DNA of 13,085 bases from Candidatus Methylomirabilia bacterium (GCA_041497895.1 JBGQHJ010000134.1:1-13085), one strand, 5' to 3'; numbered from the stretch's first letter, positions 1,759 to 12,147 are shown. A program made the numbers and translations. Notes: a model not told the origin generated them from the letters alone.

Positions 1759-2178
1759 CTATTCCTCCCGCGGGCGGCCCGCGGGCGCGCCCAGCACGTA
1801 GGCCGCGAACAGCTCGTCGAGGGCCCGCGCCGGATCGTCGGTGAGCCCGGCGTGGACCGGCGAGCTCTGGAGCACGTCCGAGCGCGGGGCGGTGAGCCAG
1901 TGGAAGCGCTCGGACGGCGGGGCGAGCGCGACCGGGCCCGCGGCGGGGTCGCCCGCGGCGACCGCGCAGCCCGACGCCAGGTAGCGGGCGAGCAGCTCGT
2001 GGTCGATGTCGGGCACCCGCGCGCGCAGGTCGTCCAGCGCGGCGAGGGTCCGCATCCCCAGGTAGCCCGCGGTGCGCGCGTGGAGCACCACCCCGACCGG
2101 CACGAAGGCCCCCAGGTGCACGTGGGGCACCGCGCGGAGCACCGCGAAGTCGTAGGCGATCGGGACCCCGGCGGTCAT
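1759..2178 (-). CDS. DUF3037-like protein, 139 aa (partner of the HipA-like kinase)
   Basis: True start is ATG 2178, overlapping the kinase stop (ATGA); the longer 270-aa ORF call is an N-terminal over-extension. Motifs YDFAVLRAVPHV..GVVL and ERFHWLTAPRSDVLQSSPVHAG match my recollection of DUF3037. Confidence 0.85.
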   Translation of the reverse strand: MTAGVPIAYDFAVLRAVPHVHLGAFVPVGVVLHARTAGYLGMRTLAALDDLRARVPDIDHELLARYLASGCAVAAGDPAAGPVALAPPSERFHWLTAPRSDVLQSSPVHAGLTDDPARALDELFAAYVLGAPAGRPREE

Positions 2179-3020
2179 CGGCGCGCGGAGAGGGGACGCG
2201 GCCGCTCGCGACGCGCCTGCTCTCGCGCGCGGGTCGCCTCGGCCACGAAGACGCGGGGCTCGCGCAGGCGCACCGCCAGGTATTCGAGGTAGCGGGCGCG
2301 GGCGGCCGCCGCGGAGGGAAAGTCGCGCCCGCCCACCGGATCGGTCAGGAGCTCGTCCGGCACCCGCGCGAGGATGCCGGCGAGCACCTCGGGGGAGAGT
2401 GCGCCGGCCAGGGGCGCGTCGACCGCACCCAGGTCGCCGGCCCGATCGAGCAGCACGTGGTCCCGGATGTGCGGGAAGGGGGTCCGGGCTCGCGCCTCGT
2501 CCACCGTGGCCCAGTCGTGATGCGCGTAGAGCGCTCCGCCGTGATCGATCAGCCACGGGCCGCGCCGCCACACGAGCAGGTTGGGATTACGATGGCTGCG
2601 GTCCGGGTTGGTGACGAGCGCGTCGAGCCACACGAGCCGCGTGGCGAAGTCGGTGGAGATCAGCTCCCCCGCGGCGGTGGCGTCGAAGTTGAACGCGCCG
2701 TCGAGGTAGCGCAGCCCCACGTTGACGCCCTGGCTGCCCCGCAGGATGTCCTGGATCTCCGGGTCGGGCTCGCTCCGCCCGAAGGCCGCGGAGAGGTCCA
2801 CGATCGCGAGCTCGGGCACCGGCAGGTCGAGCGCCTGCGCGAGCTGGCCCACCACCAGCTCGGCGATCAGGGCCTTCGGGCCCTGCCCCGCGCCCCGGAA
2901 CTTGACCACGAACAGTCCCCCGGTGGCGGTGTCGACGACCGCGGGCAGCGAGCCGCCCTCCCGCAGCGGCTGCACGTAGCGGGTCGCCGCGTGACGCGCG
3001 AGCGAGTCGGGTGTGGCCAT
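2175..3020 (-). CDS. HipA-like (PI3/4-kinase-fold) kinase, 281 aa
   Basis: Gly loop LREGGSLP, catalytic Lys in VVKFRGAGQG, helix-C Glu in IAELV, catalytic loop NPDRSHRNPNLL and Mg-binding LIDHG. Confidence 0.88.
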   Translation of the reverse strand: MATPDSLARHAATRYVQPLREGGSLPAVVDTATGGLFVVKFRGAGQGPKALIAELVVGQLAQALDLPVPELAIVDLSAAFGRSEPDPEIQDILRGSQGVNVGLRYLDGAFNFDATAAGELISTDFATRLVWLDALVTNPDRSHRNPNLLVWRRGPWLIDHGGALYAHHDWATVDEARARTPFPHIRDHVLLDRAGDLGAVDAPLAGALSPEVLAGILARVPDELLTDPVGGRDFPSAAAARARYLEYLAVRLREPRVFVAEATRAREQARRERPRPLSARR

Positions 3021-3072
3021 CCCCGCTCAGGACTGTACTACACGGGCCCGGGGCCGCGGTATGATGCGGGCC
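3021..3072. promoter_or_regulatory. Compact divergent promoter region (kinase / selenoprotein 1)
   Basis: On +, TATGAT at 3060-3065 lies 7 nt before ATG 3073, with no Shine-Dalgarno. On -, TACAGT at 3037-3032 lies 11 nt upstream of the kinase ATG (3020). No convincing -35 boxes. Confidence 0.55.
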
Positions 3073-4668
3073 ATGGAGATCCTCGACCCGGTCGGCTCGT
3101 CCGCCGCCGCCACGCGCACCGGGGCGCCGCGCCCGGCCTCGCTGCAGGGAGCGGTCATCGGCATCCTCGACAACTCCAAGCCCAACGCGCGCGTCCTGCT
3201 GGAAGGCGTGGCCCGCGCGCTCGCGGCCAAGCTCGGCGCCGCCGAGGTGCGCGTGTGGCGCAAGCCCGGTGCCTCCATCGGCGCGACGCGCGCCGTGCTC
3301 GACGAGATGGCGGCCCACTGCGGGGCCGTCCTGACCGCCTCCGCCGACTGAGGGTCGTGCACGTCGTGGAGTATCCACGACGCCACGGAGCTGGAAGGGC
3401 GGGGGATCGCGACCGTCGTCCTGGGCACGCACGAGTTCCGCCCGCTCGCCCTCGCCGAGGCCCGCGCCAAGGGACTGGCCTCGCTCGGGATCGTCACGGT
3501 GCCACACCCCATCGGCGGCGTGGCGGAGGACCTGGTCGCGAGCAAGGCGGCGGGCGCGGTCGACCAGGTGCTGGCCGCGCTCATCGGCACCGTGGCCGCG
3601 AGCGGAGTGGATGCCGGGGTGGCGGAAGGGCCGGCCCCGCGCCACCGCGCGCCCGACGATCTCCTCGATTTCCAGGCCTTCCTGATGGAGCGCGGCTGGG
3701 GCGACGGGCTGCCCGCCATTCCCGCCACCCCGGAGCGGGTGGCCGCGATGCTCGCGGGCACGCGGCGTGCGGCCGGCGACCCGGTCGCGGTGCTGCCCCC
3801 CCGGCTCGGCCGCGCCACCGTCGAGCGGGTGGCGGTGAACGCGGTGCTGGCGGGCGCGCTGCCCGAGCACCTGCCGGTGATCCTGGCCGTGGTCGAGGCG
3901 GTGAGCCAGCCCGCCTTCAACCTGCAGGCCATCCAGACCACCACCCATCCCTGCTCGCCGCTCGTCATCGTCAACGGCCCGCTCGCGGTCCGGCTCGGCG
4001 TCAACGGGGGCGGCAACGCGCTCGGGCAGGGCCATCGCGCCAACGCGGTCATCGGGCGCGCCCTGCGGCTCGTGCTGCAGAACGTGGGCGGGGCCCGGCC
4101 CGGTCACGAGGATCGCGCGACCCAGGGGCACCCGGGCAAGTACAGCTACTGCGTGGCCGAGAACGAGGCCGCGTCGCCCTGGGAGCCGCTCTCCGTCGAG
4201 CGGGGCTTCGGGCGCGAGGTCAGCACGGTGACGGTCTGCGGCTCGGAGGCCCCGCACAACATCAACGACCACGGCTCCTCCACTCCCGAGGGCATCCTCG
4301 CCACGGTGGCGGGCAGCGTGGCCACGGTGGGGAGCAACAACATCTACCTGGGCGGCGAGCCGCTGGTGATCCTGGGGCCCGAGCACGCGGCCACCGTGGC
4401 CGGCGGGGGCTGGACCAAGGCCCGGTTCAAGCGCGAGCTGTGGGAGCGCGCCCAGGTGCCGCTCTCGCGCTTCGATCCCTCCAACATCGAGCGCTTCGCG
4501 GTGATCCACCCCGCCGGTTTCAAGGACCGCCCGCCCGACACGCTGGCCCCGATCGCGCGCGAGTGGGCCGACATCATGATCGTGGTGGCGGGCGGGGCCG
4601 GAAAGCACTCGGTGTTCGTGCCCACCTTCGGGGCGACGCGCTCGGTCACCCAGCGCATCGAGGTGTGA
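3073..4668 (+). CDS. UGSC-type selenoprotein fused to a large GWxDGLP-motif domain; 531 aa, Sec93 encoded by TGA 3349-3351
   Basis: ORFs 3013..3351 and 3499..4668 share a frame and are separated only by TGA 3349-3351. Readthrough gives AVLTASAD-U-GSCTSWSIHDATELEGRGIATVVLGTHEF..VPHPIGG with no further stop until 4668. A hairpin follows the TGA. The start at 3073 (MEILDP) is supported by the paralog (FEILDP); ATGs at 3061 and 3064 are alternatives. Confidence 0.9.
3352..3388 (+). promoter_or_regulatory. Putative bacterial SECIS element 1
   Basis: Perfect 9-bp stem CGTCGTGGA-GTA-TCCACGACG at 3362-3382, starting 11 nt after the UGA, with the loop G at +20. Possible lower stem CGTG(3356-3359)/CACG(3384-3387). 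Confidence 0.8.
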
Positions 4669-5129
4669 CGGTGCGCGGCCGGGTCCTCACGCTGGTCGGG
4701 CTCCTGGTGCTGGCGGCCGCCGCACCGGCCGCCGCCGAGATGACCCCGACGCCCCCGCCCAGCCGCTTGCCGCCCGTGCCGTCGGCGGAAGGGGAGTACG
4801 CGCGCGGGGTCGCGGCCACGCGCGCGAAGGAGTGGAGCGTGGCCGCGGTCGCCTTCAGCCGGGCGGTGGAGATGAAGCCCGCGTACCCCGAGGCCTGGAA
4901 CGGGCTCGGGTTCGCGCTCCGCAACCAGGGCAAGTACGCCGAAGCGCTCAAGGCCTACGACGAGGCGCTGCGCCTGCGCCCGGACTACCCCGACGCGCTC
5001 GAGTACCTGGGCGAGGCCTACGTGAAGATGGGGCGGCTCGAGGACGCCCGTCGCGTGCTCGAGCGCCTCACCCCGCTCGACCGCGAGCGGGCCAAGGAGC
5101 TGTCCGAGGCTATCGCGCGGGGGAAGTGA
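4665..5129 (+). CDS. Exported tetratricopeptide-repeat protein, 154 aa
   Basis: GTG 4665 overlaps the upstream stop (GTGA). Signal peptide MTVRGRVLTLVGLLVLAAAAPAAA, a Pro-rich linker, then TPR units (AWNGLGFALRNQGKYAEALKAYDEALRLRPDY, ALEYLGEAYVKMGRLEDA). Confidence 0.85.
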   Translation: MTVRGRVLTLVGLLVLAAAAPAAAEMTPTPPPSRLPPVPSAEGEYARGVAATRAKEWSVAAVAFSRAVEMKPAYPEAWNGLGFALRNQGKYAEALKAYDEALRLRPDYPDALEYLGEAYVKMGRLEDARRVLERLTPLDRERAKELSEAIARGK

Positions 5130-6723
5130 CCGAGTAGAGCCGCTCGAAGTACTCCCGGACCATCCGGTCCGAGGAGAAGCGCTCCACCCCCATCCGGATC
5201 GACCCCCGCATCATCCGCGTCCAGCGCGCCCGGTCGGCGAAGGTGGGCAGGACCTCGGTCTCGAGCGTGTCGTAGAGCGCGCGCAGGTCGCGGGGGTCGG
5301 GGTCGCCGCTCACGGTGCCGTCGCCGATGGCCCACCCGGTCACGCCGTGCTCGCAGCCCTCCGGCCACCACCCGTCGAGCACCGAGAGGTTGAGGGTGCC
5401 GTTCATGGCCGCCTTCATGCCGGAGGTGCCGCTCGCCTCCATCGGGCGCCGCGGGGTGTTCAGCCAGACGTCGCAGCCGCGCGTGAGCACGCGGCCGAGC
5501 GCCATGTCGTAGTCCTCGAGGAAGGCCACGCTGTCGGGCCACTGGCGCAGCCCCTCGACGAGCCGCGCGATGACCGCCTTGCCCTCGTGATCGGCCGGAT
5601 GGGCCTTGCCCGCGAAGAGGAGCTGGACCCGGTGGCGCTTGATCAAGGTCGCGAAGCGGCCCGGGTCGCGCAGCAGCAGGTCCGGCCGCTTGTAGGTGGC
5701 GGCCCGCCGGGCGAACCCGATGGTGAGCGCGTCGGGATCGAGACGGGTGCCGGTCCGCGCGCGCACCTCGGCCAGGAGCTCGCCCTTGAGCGCGCGCTTG
5801 GCCGCGAGCAGCCGCTCGTCGCTGCCGTGCGCCGCCGCGATGCGCGGGTCCTGCCAGGTGCCCGTGTGCACCCCGTTGGTGATCGCGATGATCGGCGCCG
5901 CGTCCTCCACGTGGGCCCACATCGCGCGGGCGGTCTCGCCGTGCAGATGGGCCACCGCGTTGGCCGCGTGGGCGAGCCGCAGCCCCGCCACCGTCATGTT
6001 GAACGGATCGCCGCCGATCTCGGCCAGCTCGCTCGCCACCAGCTCGCAGCCCGCGCCGAGCCGCCGCAGCTCGGCGAGCGCGTGGACCTCGTTGCCGGCC
6101 GGCACCGGGGTGTGGGTGGTGAACACGATGGACCGGCGCGCCTTGCGCCACGCGTCGTGGAAGCGGCTGCCGGTCTCCATCCGGTCCGCGATCAGCTCGA
6201 TCCCGGCGAAGACCGCGTGCCCCTCGTTGAAGTGGTAGAGCTCGACCGGGAGGTGCAGCGCCCGGAGCGCGCGCACCCCCCCGATGCCGAGCAGCATCTC
6301 CTGGGCGACCCGGCAGTCCGGTCGCGGGTCGTAGAGGCGGCGGGTGATCCACAGATCGCGCGGGTCGGTGGGCTCGAGCAGGTAGAGGGGGGCGATGGCG
6401 TAGCGGCCCACGCGCCACACGCGGCACTCCACCTCGCGCGCCGCGACCCGCACGCGCACGCGCGCCCCGGTGTCGGAGAGCACGTCGGTCTTCTGCTGGG
6501 CCCACTCGTCGTAGGGATACCCGTCGGAGCCGATGTGCTGCGAGGTGTAGCCCTGGCCCCAGCGGAGCCCCACGCCCACGACCGGCATTCCGAGATCCCC
6601 GGCCGACTTCATGAAGTCGCCCGCGAGCACTCCCAGGCCGCCCGCGTACGAGTGGAACTCCTCGTGCAGCCCGTACTCCATCGAGAAGTACGCGACCAGC
6701 GGCAACCGACTCTCCGAGTTCAC
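5110..6723 (-). CDS. glgP: Alpha-glucan (glycogen/maltodextrin) phosphorylase, compact form
   Basis: AYFSMEYGL, YAGGLGVLAGD, NEGH, FTTHTPVPAG, FARRAATYKR, GKAHPAD, PLP-lysine motif EASGTSGMKAAMNG and LDGWW. The start is uncertain: GTG 6723 (just before the conserved core) or ATG 6786. Confidence 0.92.
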   Translation of the reverse strand: MNSESRLPLVAYFSMEYGLHEEFHSYAGGLGVLAGDFMKSAGDLGMPVVGVGLRWGQGYTSQHIGSDGYPYDEWAQQKTDVLSDTGARVRVRVAAREVECRVWRVGRYAIAPLYLLEPTDPRDLWITRRLYDPRPDCRVAQEMLLGIGGVRALRALHLPVELYHFNEGHAVFAGIELIADRMETGSRFHDAWRKARRSIVFTTHTPVPAGNEVHALAELRRLGAGCELVASELAEIGGDPFNMTVAGLRLAHAANAVAHLHGETARAMWAHVEDAAPIIAITNGVHTGTWQDPRIAAAHGSDERLLAAKRALKGELLAEVRARTGTRLDPDALTIGFARRAATYKRPDLLLRDPGRFATLIKRHRVQLLFAGKAHPADHEGKAVIARLVEGLRQWPDSVAFLEDYDMALGRVLTRGCDVWLNTPRRPMEASGTSGMKAAMNGTLNLSVLDGWWPEGCEHGVTGWAIGDGTVSGDPDPRDLRALYDTLETEVLPTFADRARWTRMMRGSIRMGVERFSSDRMVREYFERLYSVTSPAR

Positions 6724-6814
6724 GGCGCGAGTGCCCGTGTCGTGATCAGCCGCAGATAGGTGCTCACCGGATCGAGCATAGGCCATGCGTCCAGCAACGC
6801 AAAGCCCCGGGAGG

Positions 6815-6872
6815 CGCGGCGGTGGGGCGGGGGCGGCGGGGGCCCTCCCGCCGCCCCCACCCCACCGCCGCG
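6815..6872 (-). repeat. Long GC-rich inverted repeat (26-bp arms, 6-nt loop) directly after the ndh stop
   Basis: Arms 6815-6840 and 6847-6872 pair at 25 of 26 positions. The single C/A mismatch (6828/6859) becomes a G-U wobble in minus-strand RNA. No adjacent U-tract. Confidence 0.85.
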
Positions 6873-6879
6873 GACACCG

Positions 6880-8145
6880 TCAGCGTCGTGAGCGCCAGGG
6901 CCCGGTGATCAGGCGCGCGCCGCGCTGCCAGCTGATGTACGCCCACGCCCATTCGAACAGCACCAGGAAGCGGTTGCGGAAGCCGATCAGGAACGCGATG
7001 TGCACGAAGAGCCACGCGAGCCAGGCCGGCAGGCCGGAGAGGCGGAGGCGCCCGACCACCGCGACCGCGGCCGCGCGGCCGATGGTGGCCATGCTGCCGC
7101 GGTCGCGGTAGCGGAACGCGTCGGTCGGCTCTCCGGCCAGATGGTGCAGCACGTTGCGGGCCGTCGCGCGCCCCTGCTGCAAGGCGACCGGCGCCAGCCC
7201 GGGTAACGGTCGGCCGTCGGCCCCGGTGAAGGAGCACAGGTCGCCGATGGCGAAGGCCTCGGGGTGGCCGGGGATCGAGAGGTCGCGCTCGACCAGCACG
7301 CGCCCGGCCCGGTCGAGCGGCACGCCCAGCGTGCGGGTGAGCGGCGCGGCGGCGACGCCGGCCGCCCACAGCACGGTGCGCGCGCGGATCTGCTCCCCGC
7401 CCAGCCAGACCGCGTCGGGGGTTACCCGCGTGACGGTGGCGCCGGTGCGCACCTCGACCCCGATGCGCGCGAGCGCGGCGGCGGCGCGCGCGGGCAGGGG
7501 ATCGGGGAAGGCGGCCAGGACGCGGGGGCTGCCCTCGAGCAGCACGATCCGCGCCTTGGTGGGGTCGATCAGGCGGAAGTCGCGCGCGATGGTCTCGCGC
7601 GAGATCTCGGCCAGGGCCCCGGCCAGCTCCACCCCGGTCGGGCCGCCGCCGATCACCACCGAGGTGAGCAGCGCGCGCTGCTCGGCGCCGTCCTGCTCCC
7701 GCTCGGCCTCCTCGTAGGCCAGCAGCACGCGGCGCCGGATCTCGAGCGCGTCCTCCAGGGTCTTGAGGCTCGGGGCCAGCGGCTCCCAGTCGTCGTGGCC
7801 GAAGTAGGAGTGGCCGGCGCCCGCGGCGAGCACGAGCGCGTCGTAGGGCATCGCGCCCTCGTCGAGGACGAGGCGTCGGCCGGCCAGGTCCACCGACACG
7901 ACCTCGGCCAGGAACACGGTGACGTTCGGGGCGCGGCGCAGGATGGAGCGAAGCGGGGTCGCGATGTCGGACGGGTTGAGGGCCGCGGTGGCCACCTGGT
8001 AGAGCAGGGGCTGGAAGAGATGATGGTTGCGCCGGTCGAGGAGGGTGACGCGGACCGGCCGGTTCGCGAGCGCGCGGGCCGCGTAGAGCCCGCCGAATCC
8101 GCCGCCCACGATGACCACGTGCGGATGCCCGTCGCGGTCGCTCAC
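6880..8145 (-). CDS. ndh: Type II NADH:quinone oxidoreductase (FAD-dependent), about 421 aa
   Basis: Two Rossmann motifs (VVIVGGGFGG, VVIGGGPTGVELAG), HLFQPLLYQVAT, WAAGV, AIGD, APVALQQG, FRYRDRGSMATIGR and C-terminal AWLAWLFVH. Start placed at GTG 8145, just before the first Rossmann strand. Confidence 0.92.
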   Translation of the reverse strand: MSDRDGHPHVVIVGGGFGGLYAARALANRPVRVTLLDRRNHHLFQPLLYQVATAALNPSDIATPLRSILRRAPNVTVFLAEVVSVDLAGRRLVLDEGAMPYDALVLAAGAGHSYFGHDDWEPLAPSLKTLEDALEIRRRVLLAYEEAEREQDGAEQRALLTSVVIGGGPTGVELAGALAEISRETIARDFRLIDPTKARIVLLEGSPRVLAAFPDPLPARAAAALARIGVEVRTGATVTRVTPDAVWLGGEQIRARTVLWAAGVAAAPLTRTLGVPLDRAGRVLVERDLSIPGHPEAFAIGDLCSFTGADGRPLPGLAPVALQQGRATARNVLHHLAGEPTDAFRYRDRGSMATIGRAAAVAVVGRLRLSGLPAWLAWLFVHIAFLIGFRNRFLVLFEWAWAYISWQRGARLITGPWRSRR

Positions 8146-8151
8146 GGACTC

Positions 8152-8180
8152 ATCTTCCGGGGGACCTCGGACGGTGTCAA
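8152..8180 (-). promoter_or_regulatory. Possible divergent promoter for ndh
   Basis: TTGACA on the minus strand (8180-8175), a 17-nt spacer, then a weak -10 GAAGAT (8157-8152) ending 6 nt before GTG 8145. Confidence 0.4.
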
Positions 8181-8202
8181 CCGAGCGCGAGCCGCGGCCG
8201 GC

Positions 8203-8247
8203 TTGACAGGACGCGGGCTTCGCCCTAGGGTGAGCGCACACAGGAGG
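8203..8247 (+). promoter_or_regulatory. Sigma70-type promoter and RBS of the selenoprotein-2 operon
   Basis: TTGACA 8203-8208, a 17-nt spacer, TAGGGT 8226-8231, AGGAGG 8242-8247 and ATG 8256. Confidence 0.75.
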
Positions 8248-8255
8248 AGTCGCTC

Positions 8256-9302
8256 ATGACCGCGAGGATCTCGTCACAGCGCTACGCCGTCGAGGGTTTC
8301 CAGGAGGCGCTCGACCTCTGCTACAGCCGGGGATGGACCGACGGCCTGCCGGTGGTGCCGCCGACCGAGCCGGCGGTGCGGGCCATGCTCGACGCGGTCG
8401 CGCTCGAGCCCGACGCGCAGGTCGCCTTCATCACCAACCGACAGGTGGCGATCTCCGCCGAGAAGGTCGCGATCAACGCGGTGATGGCGGGCTGCCGGCC
8501 CGAGTACATGCCGGTGGTGGTGGCCGCGATCGAGGGCATCGCCGATCCCCGGTGGGGCTATCACGGGCCGGCCACGTCCACCGGGAGCGCGGCGGTCCTC
8601 ACGATCGTCAACGGGCCCGTCGCCAAGCGGCTCGACTTCAACTCGGGCGACAATCTCTTCGCGCCGGGCTGGCGGGCGAACGCCACCGTCGGGCGCGCGG
8701 TGCGGCTGGTGATGCGCAACGTGATCGGGACGATGCCCGGACGGCTCGACCGCGGGACTTTCGGCCATCCGGGCCGCTACACGTACGTGATGGCCGAGAA
8801 CGAGGCGGAGAGCCCGTGGACACCGCTGCACGTCGAGCGGGCCGGCTGCCGGCCCACCGACAGCGCGGTCACGGTCATGGCCGCGCTGGCCCCGATCCAG
8901 TTCTACAACCAGCTCTCGAGCACCGCGGCCGGCGTGCTCGGCACGCTCTGCGACACGATGCGGTATCCCGGGCAGATCGGACAGCCCAACTACTGCGTGG
9001 TGCTGGCCGGCGAGCACATGCGCACGATCGCGGCCGACGGCTGGTCCAAGGCCGACATCCGCAAGTTCATCTTCGAGAACTCCACGAACACGGTGGCGCA
9101 CTTCAAGCGGACCGCGCGGATGCCCGGCGGGGTGAAGCCGGAGGACGAGGCCACGAGCCGGCCGATCGTGCAGTCGCCGGACGACATCCTGGTGGTGGCG
9201 GCGGGGGGGCGCGCCGGCTCCTTCTCGTGCTTCATCCCGGGCTGGGCGAGCCGCACCTCGTCGGAAGCAGTGACGGTGGTCATCAAAGAGAGGAGCGCAT
9301 GA
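8256..9302 (+). CDS. Stand-alone GWxDGLP-motif protein (UGSC-selenoprotein partner), 348 aa, function unknown
   Basis: Strong RBS. Colinear paralog of the C-terminal domain of 3073..4668: GWTDGLPVVPPT/GWGDGLPAIPAT, EKVAINAVMAG/ERVAVNAVLAG, IVNGP, RANATVGRA/RANAVIGRA, GHPGRYTY/GHPGKYSY, AENE..SPW.PL.VER, GWSKA/GWTKA, DILVVAAGG/DIMIVVAGG. Confidence 0.9.
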   Translation: MTARISSQRYAVEGFQEALDLCYSRGWTDGLPVVPPTEPAVRAMLDAVALEPDAQVAFITNRQVAISAEKVAINAVMAGCRPEYMPVVVAAIEGIADPRWGYHGPATSTGSAAVLTIVNGPVAKRLDFNSGDNLFAPGWRANATVGRAVRLVMRNVIGTMPGRLDRGTFGHPGRYTYVMAENEAESPWTPLHVERAGCRPTDSAVTVMAALAPIQFYNQLSSTAAGVLGTLCDTMRYPGQIGQPNYCVVLAGEHMRTIAADGWSKADIRKFIFENSTNTVAHFKRTARMPGGVKPEDEATSRPIVQSPDDILVVAAGGRAGSFSCFIPGWASRTSSEAVTVVIKERSA

Positions 9303-9841
9303 TGGCGGGATTCGAGATCCTCGACCCCACGGTCGAGCCGCGGCGACAGCCGCTCACGTACGTGCCGCGCCCGGATTCGCTCAAGGGCAAGCGCATCGGA
9401 CTGGTGGAGAACACCAAGTTCAACTCGGACAAGCTGCTGCAGAAGATCGGGGTCATCCTCAAGACCGAGTACGGCGCCGCCGAGGCGCGGATGTGGCGCA
9501 AGCACAACTCGAGCGTGCCGGCCCACAAGGAGATCATCGACGACGCCAAGCAGACCGTGGACGTCGTCGTCGCCGGCATCGGCGACTGAGGGTCCTGCTC
9601 GTCGGGCAGTGTGCTCGACGGAATCCTGTTCGAGAAGATCGGCGTCCCCGCCGCGTCCATCGTGACCGACGTCTTCGAGGCCACCGGGCACGCCATGGCC
9701 CAGTCGTGGGGCGTCCCGGAGTACAGGTTCCTCTCGGTGCCGCATCCGATCGCGAACCTCACCGACGCCGAGCTGGACGCGCGGGCCCGCACGATCGCCC
9801 CCGAGGTCGTGCGACTGCTGCTGAAGGGCCAGGAAGGCTAG
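9299..9841 (+). CDS. Stand-alone UGSC-type selenoprotein; 180 aa, Sec97 encoded by TGA 9587-9589
   Basis: ATG 9299 (ATGA overlap, AGGAG RBS; ATG 9302 is an alternative) reads MMAGFEILDP..VVVAGIGD-U-GSCSSGSVLDGILFEKIGVPAASIVTDVF..VPHPIAN..KGQEG* and is in frame with ORF 9611..9841. It is colinear with locus 1 on both sides of the TGA. Confidence 0.9.
9590..9626 (+). promoter_or_regulatory. Putative bacterial SECIS element 2
   Basis: 9-bp stem CGTCGGGCA-GTG-TGCTCGACG at 9600-9620 (one G-U pair), starting 11 nt after the UGA with the loop G at +20, the same geometry as element 1. Confidence 0.8.
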
Positions 9842-9871
9842 AACACAAACAAACACAACACGGCCCGCCGC

Positions 9872-10849
9872 ATGCCAGACGACTCCGCCTACCGTCCGCC
9901 GTTCTGGTACCGGGGCCGGCACCTCCAGACGCTGTGGGGGCCGCTGGTGCGCCACTGGCGGCGGCCCCCGCTGCGGCGCGAGCGGCTCGAGACGCCCGAC
10001 GGCGACTTCGTCGATCTCGACTGGCTCGCCGGCGCCCCCGAGTCCGGCCCCGTGGTCCTGATCCTCCACGGCCTCGAGGGATCGTCGAATTCTCACTACG
10101 CGCGCGGCCTGCTGCGCGGAGCGGGGCGGCTCGGCTGGCGCCCCGCCGTGCTCCACTTCCGCTCGTGTAGCGGCGAGGTGAACCGGCTCCCGCGGCTGTA
10201 CCACTCGGGCGACACCCGCGATCTCGAGTGGGTGCTCGAGCGGCTGCAGAAGCGCGAGGCCGATCCCCGGATCGGCCTGATCGGGATCTCGCTGGGCGGC
10301 AACGTGGTGCTGAAGTGGCTCGGGGAGCAGGGCGAGGCCGCGCCCGCCGCGGTGGTGGGCTCGGTCGCGATCTCGACCCCGTTCGACCTGGCCGCGTGCG
10401 CGGAGGTGCTGGACCGCGGCTTCAACCGCGCGGTCTACACCGGGAGCTTCCTGCGCACCATGAAGGCCAAGGTGCGGGCCAAGACCCATCTCTACGACGG
10501 CCGGATCGACGTGCCCGCGGTGCTGCGCTCGCGCACCTTCGCGGAGTACGACCGGTGGTTCACCGCGCCGCTGAACGGCTTCGCCGACGAGCGCGACTAC
10601 TGGAGCCGGGCGAGCTGCGGGCCCTTTCTCGAGCGCGTCCGGCGCCCCACGTTGCTGATCAACGCGACCAACGATCCGTTCCTGCCCGGGGAGCGCCTTC
10701 CCGCGGCGGCGGTCGCGCGATCGCACTGGCTCGAGGCGGCCTTCGTGGAGCAGGGCGGGCACGTGGGATTTCTGGACGGTCCGCTCGGGGGCTCGTCGTG
10801 GGCGGAGCGGCGCGCCCTCGCGTTCCTCCGGCGCCTTCTGCTACCATGA
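9872..10849 (+). CDS. YheT-family alpha/beta hydrolase (putative esterase), 325 aa
   Basis: GRHLQTLW, TPDGDFVDLDW, LHGLEGSS, FRSCSGE, YHSGDT, nucleophile elbow GISLGG, NDPF (Asp) and GGHVGF (His). Confidence 0.9.
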   Translation: MPDDSAYRPPFWYRGRHLQTLWGPLVRHWRRPPLRRERLETPDGDFVDLDWLAGAPESGPVVLILHGLEGSSNSHYARGLLRGAGRLGWRPAVLHFRSCSGEVNRLPRLYHSGDTRDLEWVLERLQKREADPRIGLIGISLGGNVVLKWLGEQGEAAPAAVVGSVAISTPFDLAACAEVLDRGFNRAVYTGSFLRTMKAKVRAKTHLYDGRIDVPAVLRSRTFAEYDRWFTAPLNGFADERDYWSRASCGPFLERVRRPTLLINATNDPFLPGERLPAAAVARSHWLEAAFVEQGGHVGFLDGPLGGSSWAERRALAFLRRLLLP

Positions 10850-12147
10850 CCGCCGTGCTGCGCGACGCGTACGGCCTGGCCGTCTCGACCTCGTCCCGCC
10901 CCGCGGTCGACGCCCACGACCGGGGCGTGCGCGCGCTCCTGGGCTTCGGGGCCGACACCGTGGAGTGCTTCCGCCAGGCGCTCGCCGCCGACCCCGACTT
11001 CGTGCTGGCCCGCGCCGCCCTCGCGGTCGCGCTCTACCTGGACGAGCAGATCCCGGCGGCCCGGACCGAGATGGAGCGGGCGATCGCGGACGGGACCGCC
11101 CAGGCCGCGTCGCTCACCGCTCGCGAGCGCCGGCACCTGGAGGCCCTGCGCCTCTTCGTGGGCGGGCGCGGCAACGACGCCATCGCGGTGATGCAGGAGA
11201 TCCTGGGTGAGTTCCCGCGCGACGTGCTGCTGATGCAGCGCCTCTACTACATCTACTTCTGGCAGGGGCGCTCGGCCGAGATGCTCGAGGTGACCCGCGC
11301 GGTGCTGCCGGCCCTGGCCGACGACGGCTACGCCCTCGGCTATCACGCCTTCGCGCTCGAGGAGAATCGGCGCTTCGACGAGGCGTTGCCGCTCGCCGAG
11401 CGGGCGGTCGCGCTGAACCCGCGGGACGCCTGGGCGGTGCACGCCATCGCCCACGTGCACTACGAGCGGGGCGACAATCGTCGCGGGATCGAGAGCCTGC
11501 CGGGGCGGATCCGTCCCTGCGATCACCTGGGCTACTTCCGGAACCACCTGCTCTGGCACCTGGCCCTGCTCCACCTGGCCGAGGGCGACTACGAGCGCGG
11601 CGGGCGGCTGTTCGAGAGCGTGTTCGGCCGCATCCCGATCGCGATCGCCTCCGACCTGCAAGACTCGGTGGCCCTGGCGTGGCGTCTCGATCTCTTCGGC
11701 CGTCCGGATCCACGCCGCTGGGCCAAGCTCGGCGAGGCGGCGCGGCGGTGGCTCGACATGCCGTTGCTGCTCTTCCACGACCTGCACGTGGGGATGGCGC
11801 TCGCGGCGGCGGGCGACTGGAGCAGTGCGTCGCTCCAGCTCGACCGGCTCCGGCAGCGCGGGGCCAGGTCGAAGAACCCCACGCTCGCCGGGGTGGTGGT
11901 GCCGCTCATGGAGGGGCTGCACGCCTTCGCCCGCGGCGACTACGCGGCCGCGGTGACGCGCATCGAGCCCGTCGAGGCGCGCATCGTCGAGGTGGGCGGC
12001 AGCCACGCTCAGCGCGAGGTCTTCCACGACACGCTCCTCGCGGCGGCCCTGCGCGGATCCGAGCCGCGCGCGGTGGCCCTGCTCGAGCGGCGCCTGGCCA
12101 AGCGCCCCAACCCCGGTCGCTTCTGGGAGCAGGCGCGCGCGTCATGA
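10846..12147 (+). CDS. TTC38-like tetratricopeptide-repeat protein
   Basis: ATG 10846 overlaps the hydrolase stop; GTG 10855 is an alternative start. Motifs ALAADPDF, DAWAVHAIAHVHYE, NHLLWHLAL and GGSHAQREVF are typical of TTC38 homologues. Confidence 0.85.
   Translation: MTAVLRDAYGLAVSTSSRPAVDAHDRGVRALLGFGADTVECFRQALAADPDFVLARAALAVALYLDEQIPAARTEMERAIADGTAQAASLTARERRHLEALRLFVGGRGNDAIAVMQEILGEFPRDVLLMQRLYYIYFWQGRSAEMLEVTRAVLPALADDGYALGYHAFALEENRRFDEALPLAERAVALNPRDAWAVHAIAHVHYERGDNRRGIESLPGRIRPCDHLGYFRNHLLWHLALLHLAEGDYERGGRLFESVFGRIPIAIASDLQDSVALAWRLDLFGRPDPRRWAKLGEAARRWLDMPLLLFHDLHVGMALAAAGDWSSASLQLDRLRQRGARSKNPTLAGVVVPLMEGLHAFARGDYAAAVTRIEPVEARIVEVGGSHAQREVFHDTLLAAALRGSEPRAVALLERRLAKRPNPGRFWEQARAS

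Follow-up and report, generated by a model that had tools for sequence, protein, structure and literature searches.

Two hairpins behind in-frame UGA codons of a Candidatus Methylomirabilia bacterium as probable, family-specific bacterial SECIS elements of UGSC genes

What is the meaning of two closely similar hairpins that lie at the same distance behind two in-frame UGA codons, several kilobases apart, in one stretch of DNA from a Candidatus Methylomirabilia bacterium (GCA_041497895.1, JBGQHJ010000134.1:1-13085)? A preliminary description of this stretch, which we call the window and which comprises 13,085 bases, had taken the hairpins for selenocysteine insertion sequence (SECIS) elements whose covarying stems define a SECIS model specific to this lineage, with a consensus that could find more selenoproteins in it. 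We consider it probable, at roughly 85%, that each hairpin is the bacterial SECIS (bSECIS) of a selenoprotein gene of the UGSC family, that is, a family-specific instance of the general bSECIS.

The window has 73.6% GC and is one contig (C134) of a 5.11 Mb metagenome-assembled genome of the Rokubacteria/Methylomirabilota (5,113,851 bases in 280 contigs; completeness 86.8%, contamination 7.2%). The features on which the argument turns are the following.

3061..4668, plus strand: gene 1, UGSC-domain selenoprotein (predicted) with a C-terminal domain of about 350 amino acids (aa); PF24696, NF041046, open frame
3349..3351, plus strand: in-frame UGA of gene 1, predicted selenocysteine (Sec; the U of U-G-S-C), aligned with cysteine (Cys) in Cys-form homologues and with TGA in paralogues and relatives
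3362..3382, plus strand: putative SECIS upper hairpin of gene 1, 9 bp stem and GUA triloop; fold, covariance model 63.6 bits
9299..9841, plus strand: gene 2, stand-alone UGSC family selenoprotein (predicted), 180 aa; PF24696, NF041046
9587..9589, plus strand: in-frame UGA of gene 2, predicted Sec; the same column is TGC in 16 distinct Cys forms
9600..9620, plus strand: putative SECIS upper hairpin of gene 2, 9 bp stem and GUG triloop; fold, covariance model 74 bits
C167:5069-5162, 6589-7941 and 7975-9858: cluster of tRNA-Sec, selA and selB, from a scan of the same genome

Both gene products belong to the UGSC family, as they carry the U-G-S-C motif and score over the curated cut-offs of NF041046, 'UGSC family (seleno)protein' (127.8 bits for gene 1 and 145.5 bits for gene 2; cut-off 125), and of PF24696 (166 and 199.5 bits; cut-off 25), the match in gene 1 spanning residues 6-175. 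Counted from the ATG at 3061, a provisional start codon, gene 1 encodes 535 aa in an open frame (3013-4668) interrupted by one TGA. With the TGA translated as U the products read ...SAD-U-GSCTSWSIHD... (gene 1) and ...IGD-U-GSCSSGSVLD... (gene 2), and the two peptides cited in the preliminary description, TSWSIHD and SSGSVLD, are both read from these frames. The genes are paralogues, and their likeness is partly a matter of common descent and of a shared peptide. The UGSC-containing protein is a published selenoprotein family, to which no function was assigned there. The genome encodes a complete Sec machinery, with tRNA-Sec (selC, 71.3 bits), selA (565.7 bits) and selB (359.9 bits) together on one contig and two copies of selD, one of them with an in-frame TGA; selA, selB, selC and selD all score above their curated cut-offs.

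The hairpins are exactly where the preliminary description had placed them. At 3362-3382 the sequence is CGTCGTGGA-GTA-TCCACGACG, a perfect 9 bp stem, and at 9600-9620 it is CGTCGGGCA-GTG-TGCTCGACG, a 9 bp stem with one G.U pair. Both stems run from +11 after the UGA and close a GU-initiated triloop at +20; from gene 1 to gene 2 a U-A pair becomes G.U and a G-C pair becomes C-G, so that pairing is kept. The minimum free energy (MFE) of the 21-mers is -13.5 kcal/mol in gene 1 and -12.6 kcal/mol in gene 2.

Each hairpin taken alone is moderately unusual, and the decisive evidence is comparative. Homologous sites were collected from four sources, namely relatives, species genomes, metagenome contigs and the order Burkholderiales (the order with a metagenome-assembled genome, MAG, titled Janthinobacterium lividum). 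Among the relatives, PF24696 matches occur in 61/61 genomes (our genome and 60 relatives up to order level, including the unpublished G029), and 150/150 among the matches listed carry TGA, with 191 more matches beyond these. The species genomes and the metagenome contigs were searched with an alignment of Cys forms and gave 75 TGA and 5 TGC sites and 69 TGA and 11 TGC sites, respectively. In the Burkholderiales, PF24696 is present in 42/401 genomes (including the unpublished G270), and 148/150 among the matches listed carry TGA. The 278 located sites were reduced to 236 distinct 180-nt regions, comprising 220 Sec forms and 16 Cys forms; one sequence from G270 (L192) was left out of these sequence-level counts.

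The two forms differ in how they use their codons. Codons +5 to +10 are TCG GGC AGT GTG CTC GAC in every one of the 156 distinct Sec sequences that encode SSGSVLD (156/156), next to flanking codons with a third-position entropy of 0.2-1.6 bits, and the Burkholderiales Sec forms likewise hold the same six codons invariant between variable flanks. The serine codon of this string, AGT, accounts for 1.4% of serine codons in 1816 long open reading frames (ORFs) of our genome, selected for high GC at third codon positions (GC3). The 16 distinct Cys forms, which encode the same peptide, SSG[S/T/G]VLD, have entropies of 0.67-1.5 bits at codons +5 to +10, and their serine codon is TCG in 10/10 cases and AGT in 0/10. 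A GU-initiated triloop is found in 218/220 distinct Sec forms versus 2/16 Cys forms, and the 21-mers have a mean MFE of -11.7 kcal/mol in Sec forms versus -4.7 kcal/mol in Cys forms. In a FastTree phylogeny with the hairpin residues masked, the Cys forms fall into a single clade (support 99) among the Sec SSGSVLD sequences. The hairpin is thus not equally conserved in Cys-encoding homologues but lost in the 16 Cys forms, and the proposal of the preliminary description that selection acts on RNA structure within the coding region survives; at the level of sequence it is well supported by codons that are frozen in Sec forms and free in Cys forms.

Covariation in the stem points in the same direction. 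We aligned 111 distinct 48-nt Sec sequences, without the divergent paralogue types C114:9371 and C193. Each of the inner six pairs is present throughout this alignment, apart from the closing A-U pair, which five sequences lack. Two pairs vary by compensatory changes, pair 19-29 being G.U in 61 sequences, U-A in 43 and A-U in 7, and pair 21-27 being C-G in 95 and G-C in 16, with neither unpaired in any of the 111, which bears out the pairing-preserving covariation that had been proposed from the two window genes. The covariation score is 0.163 versus 0.076 in shuffles (0/500 shuffles as high) and 0.023-0.079 in slid registers, and RNAalifold found the same core helix independently. Column 19, which is U, G or A, is the first base of a Trp or Cys, a Gly or a Ser codon, and it pairs with the second base of a CAC (His) or CUC (Leu) codon; since pair 19-29 falls in these codons, Trp/Cys is coupled with His and Gly/Ser with Leu in the protein. 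One pattern is purely synonymous: the eighth codon, for Val or Leu, ends in C where the sixth codon is TGG (12/12) and in G otherwise (195/195, one of them of the divergent C114 type). A protein-level cause cannot explain such third-base covariation.

Several observations weigh against a SECIS reading of the hairpins. Compared with dinucleotide shuffles, the 52-nt segments have folding z-scores of -2.1 (gene 1) and -0.78 (gene 2), although we rejected the plain z-score as a test, as coding DNA of 73.6% GC folds strongly regardless. When the same peptides were re-encoded by synonymous resampling with the genome's own codon usage (5000 times per hairpin), the peptide alone gave a mean of 6.4 (gene 1) and 5.7 (gene 2) of the 9 pairs, and the MFE of the 48-mers was unexceptional (P = 0.07 and 0.43). 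Of the folding check suggested in the preliminary description, what holds is that the 21-mers fold as hairpins; the energies of the longer segments do not stand out from shuffled (52 nt) or resampled (48 nt) sequences. The stem changes reconstructed on the FastTree phylogeny are few, pair 19-29 having changed three times (twice on both sides) and pair 21-27 twice, and the contrast between Sec and Cys forms, though informative, is one evolutionary event because the Cys forms are one clade. Since the peptide as such is self-complementary, part of the hairpin persists in some Cys forms, one of which (L210) folds at -15.5 kcal/mol over 28 nt. In our genome, C114:9371 and C193, which are divergent UGSC paralogues, have no family hairpin in register and their folds are ambiguous. 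An Rfam scan of the whole window at E <= 10 returned no family at either hairpin, and its matches elsewhere in the window were chance miRNA-like ones. Finally, the window stems are uninterrupted and do not have the bulged U that the E. coli fdhF SECIS carries in its 5' arm.

Some of these points would follow if the hairpins had no function as RNA. In that case a conserved active-site peptide encoded with GC-rich codons would give rise to the complementarity as a side effect, and paralogy would account for the likeness of the two genes. The pairs that the peptide yields by itself, the weak z-scores and the Cys forms that keep the peptide, sometimes with a partial hairpin, all speak for such an explanation. 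We nevertheless consider it very improbable, as it is contradicted by the zero synonymous variation at six codons beside variable flanks in the Sec forms, by a codon as rare as AGT in all hairpin-type Sec forms and at none of the Cys-form serine positions, and by the synonymous third-base covariation. The resampling itself gave nine in-register pairs with P = 0.036 (gene 1) and 0.022 (gene 2), and nine pairs together with a GU-initiated loop with P = 0.0014 and 0.0012. An RNA element could also serve something other than Sec delivery, given that conservation alone does not name a function and that the bulged U of the E. coli element is missing (PMC8659212); it might make the ribosome pause while the active-site segment folds, act on mRNA stability or bind SelB in a regulatory role. 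We regard this, too, as very unlikely, since the constraint is tied to the UGA and is lost in a Cys clade nested among Sec forms, and since the hairpins agree with the bSECIS model in all points of position and loop.

If each hairpin is the bSECIS of its UGSC gene, a mechanism can be proposed. With the UGA in the ribosomal A site, about 11 nt of the downstream mRNA would be occluded, and a 9 bp hairpin with its base at +11 would sit at the mRNA entrance and present its G-U triloop. In the E. coli fdhF SECIS, the loop G and U are the contacts for SelB. The lineage's own SelB, together with Sec-tRNA(Sec) and GTP, would bind the apical part of the hairpin and deliver selenocysteine in competition with release factor 2, and we infer both SelB binding and Sec insertion for the two genes. 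The hairpin sequence is inherited with the UGSC gene family across phyla. An element of this kind is part of the reading frame and would therefore freeze codons +4 to +11 at their synonymous positions; it would also force the rare serine codon AGT, which supplies the closing A and the G-U of the loop.

There remains the proposal that Rokubacteria have a distinct type of SECIS, with a consensus common to their selenoprotein genes and usable as a finder. In its favour, the strict consensus, UGA-N10-CGUCGnGnA-GUR-UnCnCGACG, is present in 152/220 distinct Sec-form UGSC sequences and 0/16 Cys forms, and the majority of the sequences come from Rokubacteria or Methylomirabilota records. However, the UGSC hairpins of the Burkholderiales have the same cores as those in the window (e.g. 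...CUCGGGCAGUGUGCUCGAC... and ...CGUCGUGGAGUGUCCACGAC...), from which it follows that the element travels with the gene family across phyla. Within our own genome, there are nine PF24696 matches, i.e. UGSC paralogues, each with one in-frame TGA (9/9), and the consensus misses 7/9 of them: a search of both strands (5,113,851 bases) returned the two window sites and no others, and in this sense the consensus has failed as a finder of more selenoproteins. The scan with a covariance model that the preliminary description envisaged for the other UGA genes of the genome did not reach them either. A model built from the 111 aligned sequences recovered the seven hairpin-type UGSC paralogues of this genome at 55-74 bits, and it detected neither the two divergent ones nor any other selenoprotein gene, fdh and selD included. 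The next match (C1:44929-44978, 25.5 bits, E = 0.016) was rejected, its TGA being out of the coding frame.

The other TGA genes of the genome complete this picture. SelD (C142:378-1313, minus strand) and an FdhA-like gene (C53:10546-12033, plus strand, ...HQARV-U-HSAT...) also carry in-frame TGAs. Further candidates were obtained with a filter for a TGA between open high-GC3 frames on both sides and with a downstream hairpin, the hairpin being itself a selection criterion; 16 non-UGSC candidates were taken, and 15 of them match Pfam families across the TGA, namely CMD/AhpD-like (5), AhpC-TSA/Redoxin (6), Thioredoxin_3 (1), Rhodanese (1) and MerB (2). The hairpins of SelD, the FdhA-like gene and the 15 Pfam-supported genes are unrelated in sequence to the UGSC hairpins, with loops of 3-7 nt that start 16-25 nt after the UGA and have a G at the first or second position. 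A lineage-specific SECIS is accordingly a most improbable account of the window: as far as sequence comparison can tell, the consensus characterises two UGSC subfamilies and the lineage-specific model is refuted.

A few observations on these candidates may be useful in their own right. The genome seems rich in selenoproteins: at 87% completeness it has about 27 candidates, made up of the 9 UGSC genes, the 15 Pfam-supported genes, one without a Pfam family, SelD and the FdhA-like gene. The candidate without a Pfam family (C29:15607, L290) is an ORF of 258 aa with a TGA, ...VVLVPS-U-PVCHQ...GLPTV..., whose UxxC layout resembles that of UGSC. An AhpD-like (CMD) candidate, with its TGA at C167:3077, lies immediately upstream of the tRNA-Sec, selA and selB cluster. 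The divergent UGSC paralogues (loci L008 and L009; C114:9371 and C193) have the motifs U-GSCTPAV and U-STCAPAV. Examples of candidates in the genome are:

C2:53029-, C10:10072+, C16:9699+, C47:18322-, C104:15525+, C114:2329+, C198:3192+ (sign, strand): selenoprotein candidates

For a specialist on selenoproteins the SECIS itself will hardly be a surprise, and what we find most interesting is the peptide that the Cys clade has kept. We propose, at about even odds, that the SECIS has shaped the peptide, in that Trp or Cys (UGG/UGC) goes with His (CAC) and Gly or Ser (GGC/AGC) with Leu (CUC), three positions apart, and Ser is encoded by the rare AGU; the nested Cys clade would then retain a SECIS-shaped peptide as a fossil, with drifting codons, after a replacement of Sec by Cys. 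If this is correct, the UGSC genes would be a clean natural case of RNA structure driving covariation of amino acids, and a family-specific covariance model would detect UGSC selenoproteins across phyla with almost no false matches. The contrast between Sec and Cys forms would also provide a compact example of an in-frame RNA element that freezes synonymous sites and shapes a peptide. On a practical matter, gene callers stop at such TGAs, and the two window genes, the remaining seven UGSC paralogues and some 18 more candidates would be split or truncated in automatic annotation. The consensus detects two UGSC subfamilies well but is useless as a general finder; to find the selenoproteins of this lineage one should use the general bSECIS model.

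Around the upper hairpins, a longer structure is predicted in both genes.

3355..3388, plus strand: predicted lower helix of gene 1, 5 bp, UCGUG with CCACG; MFE and centroid folds
9589..9627, plus strand: predicted lower helix of gene 2, AGGGU with AAUCCU, around the upper hairpin; MFE fold

The helix of gene 1 is without covariation support. In the alignment of 111 sequences, the lower helix (columns 3-7 with 37-41) is paired in 72% of cells and shows no compensatory change, and we treat the lower helices as predictions only. Codon +11 of gene 2 is the rare glycine codon GGA (5% of genome usage) in 128/156 Sec orthologues, and codon +1 is GGG (26% usage) in 131/156. The bases of these codons (window 9620-9627 and 9590-9592) flank the upper hairpin, and a lower helix between them is possible, again with no compensatory change.

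The rest of the window contains a probable partner of gene 2 and several neighbours.

8256..9302, plus strand: unfused homologue of the gene 1 C-terminal domain, 348 aa; BLASTP to window 3640-4665
1762-3020, 5113-6786 and 6883-8241, minus strand: neighbouring ORFs

The product of 8256-9302 has 40% identity to that of window 3640-4665 (E = 7e-71), and its gene ends within the start of gene 2, with 4 nt in common. Because of this homology, the two loci can be read as a two-part unit that is fused at gene 1 and split at gene 2. Profile scans of the partner domain gave no Pfam or NCBIfam family, both for 8256-9302 and for the C-terminus of gene 1, and a sequence search against the PDB gave no relative (best E = 0.38); Atlas clusters that match it are 'hypothetical' or automatically named 'Thioredoxin family protein'. 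The domain has a motif ...GW.DGLP..P.T... and is also fused to the UGSC C-terminus in the paralogues on C114 and C193. On the minus strand, a DUF3037 protein and a HipA_2-like kinase lie upstream of gene 1, and a carbohydrate-phosphorylase-like gene and an NDH-2-type pyridine nucleotide-disulphide oxidoreductase lie between the two UGSC loci. Two overlapping plus-strand ORFs (9872-10849 and 10228-12147) have Pfam matches to alpha/beta hydrolase and TPR repeats; the real start of the TPR gene is probably after 10228.

How, then, do the window hairpins compare with what has been described? UGSC is a major selenoprotein family that occurs mostly in the Sec form, with 255 Sec versus 21 Cys homologues in the Global Ocean Sampling (GOS) data (PMC2398784), and is said to 'possess strong predicted SECIS elements' (PMC1976440). 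A 2026 review lists it under NF041046 and notes that 63 selenoprotein genes are predicted in one Methylomirabilota MAG (PMC13188914). Literature searches and text passages of the papers cited here gave no printed consensus or covariation analysis of UGSC SECIS elements, though figures or supplements may hold one. Both window genes resemble the family in their U-G-S-C motif and their profile scores, and they differ between themselves in that gene 1 is fused to the domain of about 350 aa for which gene 2 has a separate upstream gene. In the E. coli fdhF SECIS, the upper stem-loop lies 11 nt from the UGA (PMC8659212), and about 11 nt of mRNA are covered by the ribosome (PMC4513850). The window stems likewise start at +11. 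Besides the missing bulge, they differ from fdhF in having a triloop instead of a larger loop, in their unlike sequence and in a SelB from another phylum.

The closest fit is to the general bSECIS model of Zhang and Gladyshev, which, in the summary of PMC13188914, allows 4-16 bp for the stem and 3-9 nt for the loop, sets the distance from UGA to loop at 16-37 nt and the MFE at <= -7.5 kcal/mol, and expects a G at loop position 1 or 2, as a rule with G or U after it. Both window hairpins directly follow an in-frame UGA that corresponds to Cys in homologues, their loop of 3 nt and stem of 9 bp are within the allowed ranges, their loops are GUA and GUG at a distance of 19 nt from the UGA in both, and the MFE of their 21-mers is well below -7.5 kcal/mol. 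None of these properties falls outside the model, the triloop being at the small end of its range, and the hairpins' description as SECIS-type elements holds on each structural point and in the constraint tied to the UGA. Being tied to one gene family, the hairpins show unusually little variation in sequence, and since they agree with the general bSECIS model in every respect, no lineage-specific model is needed.

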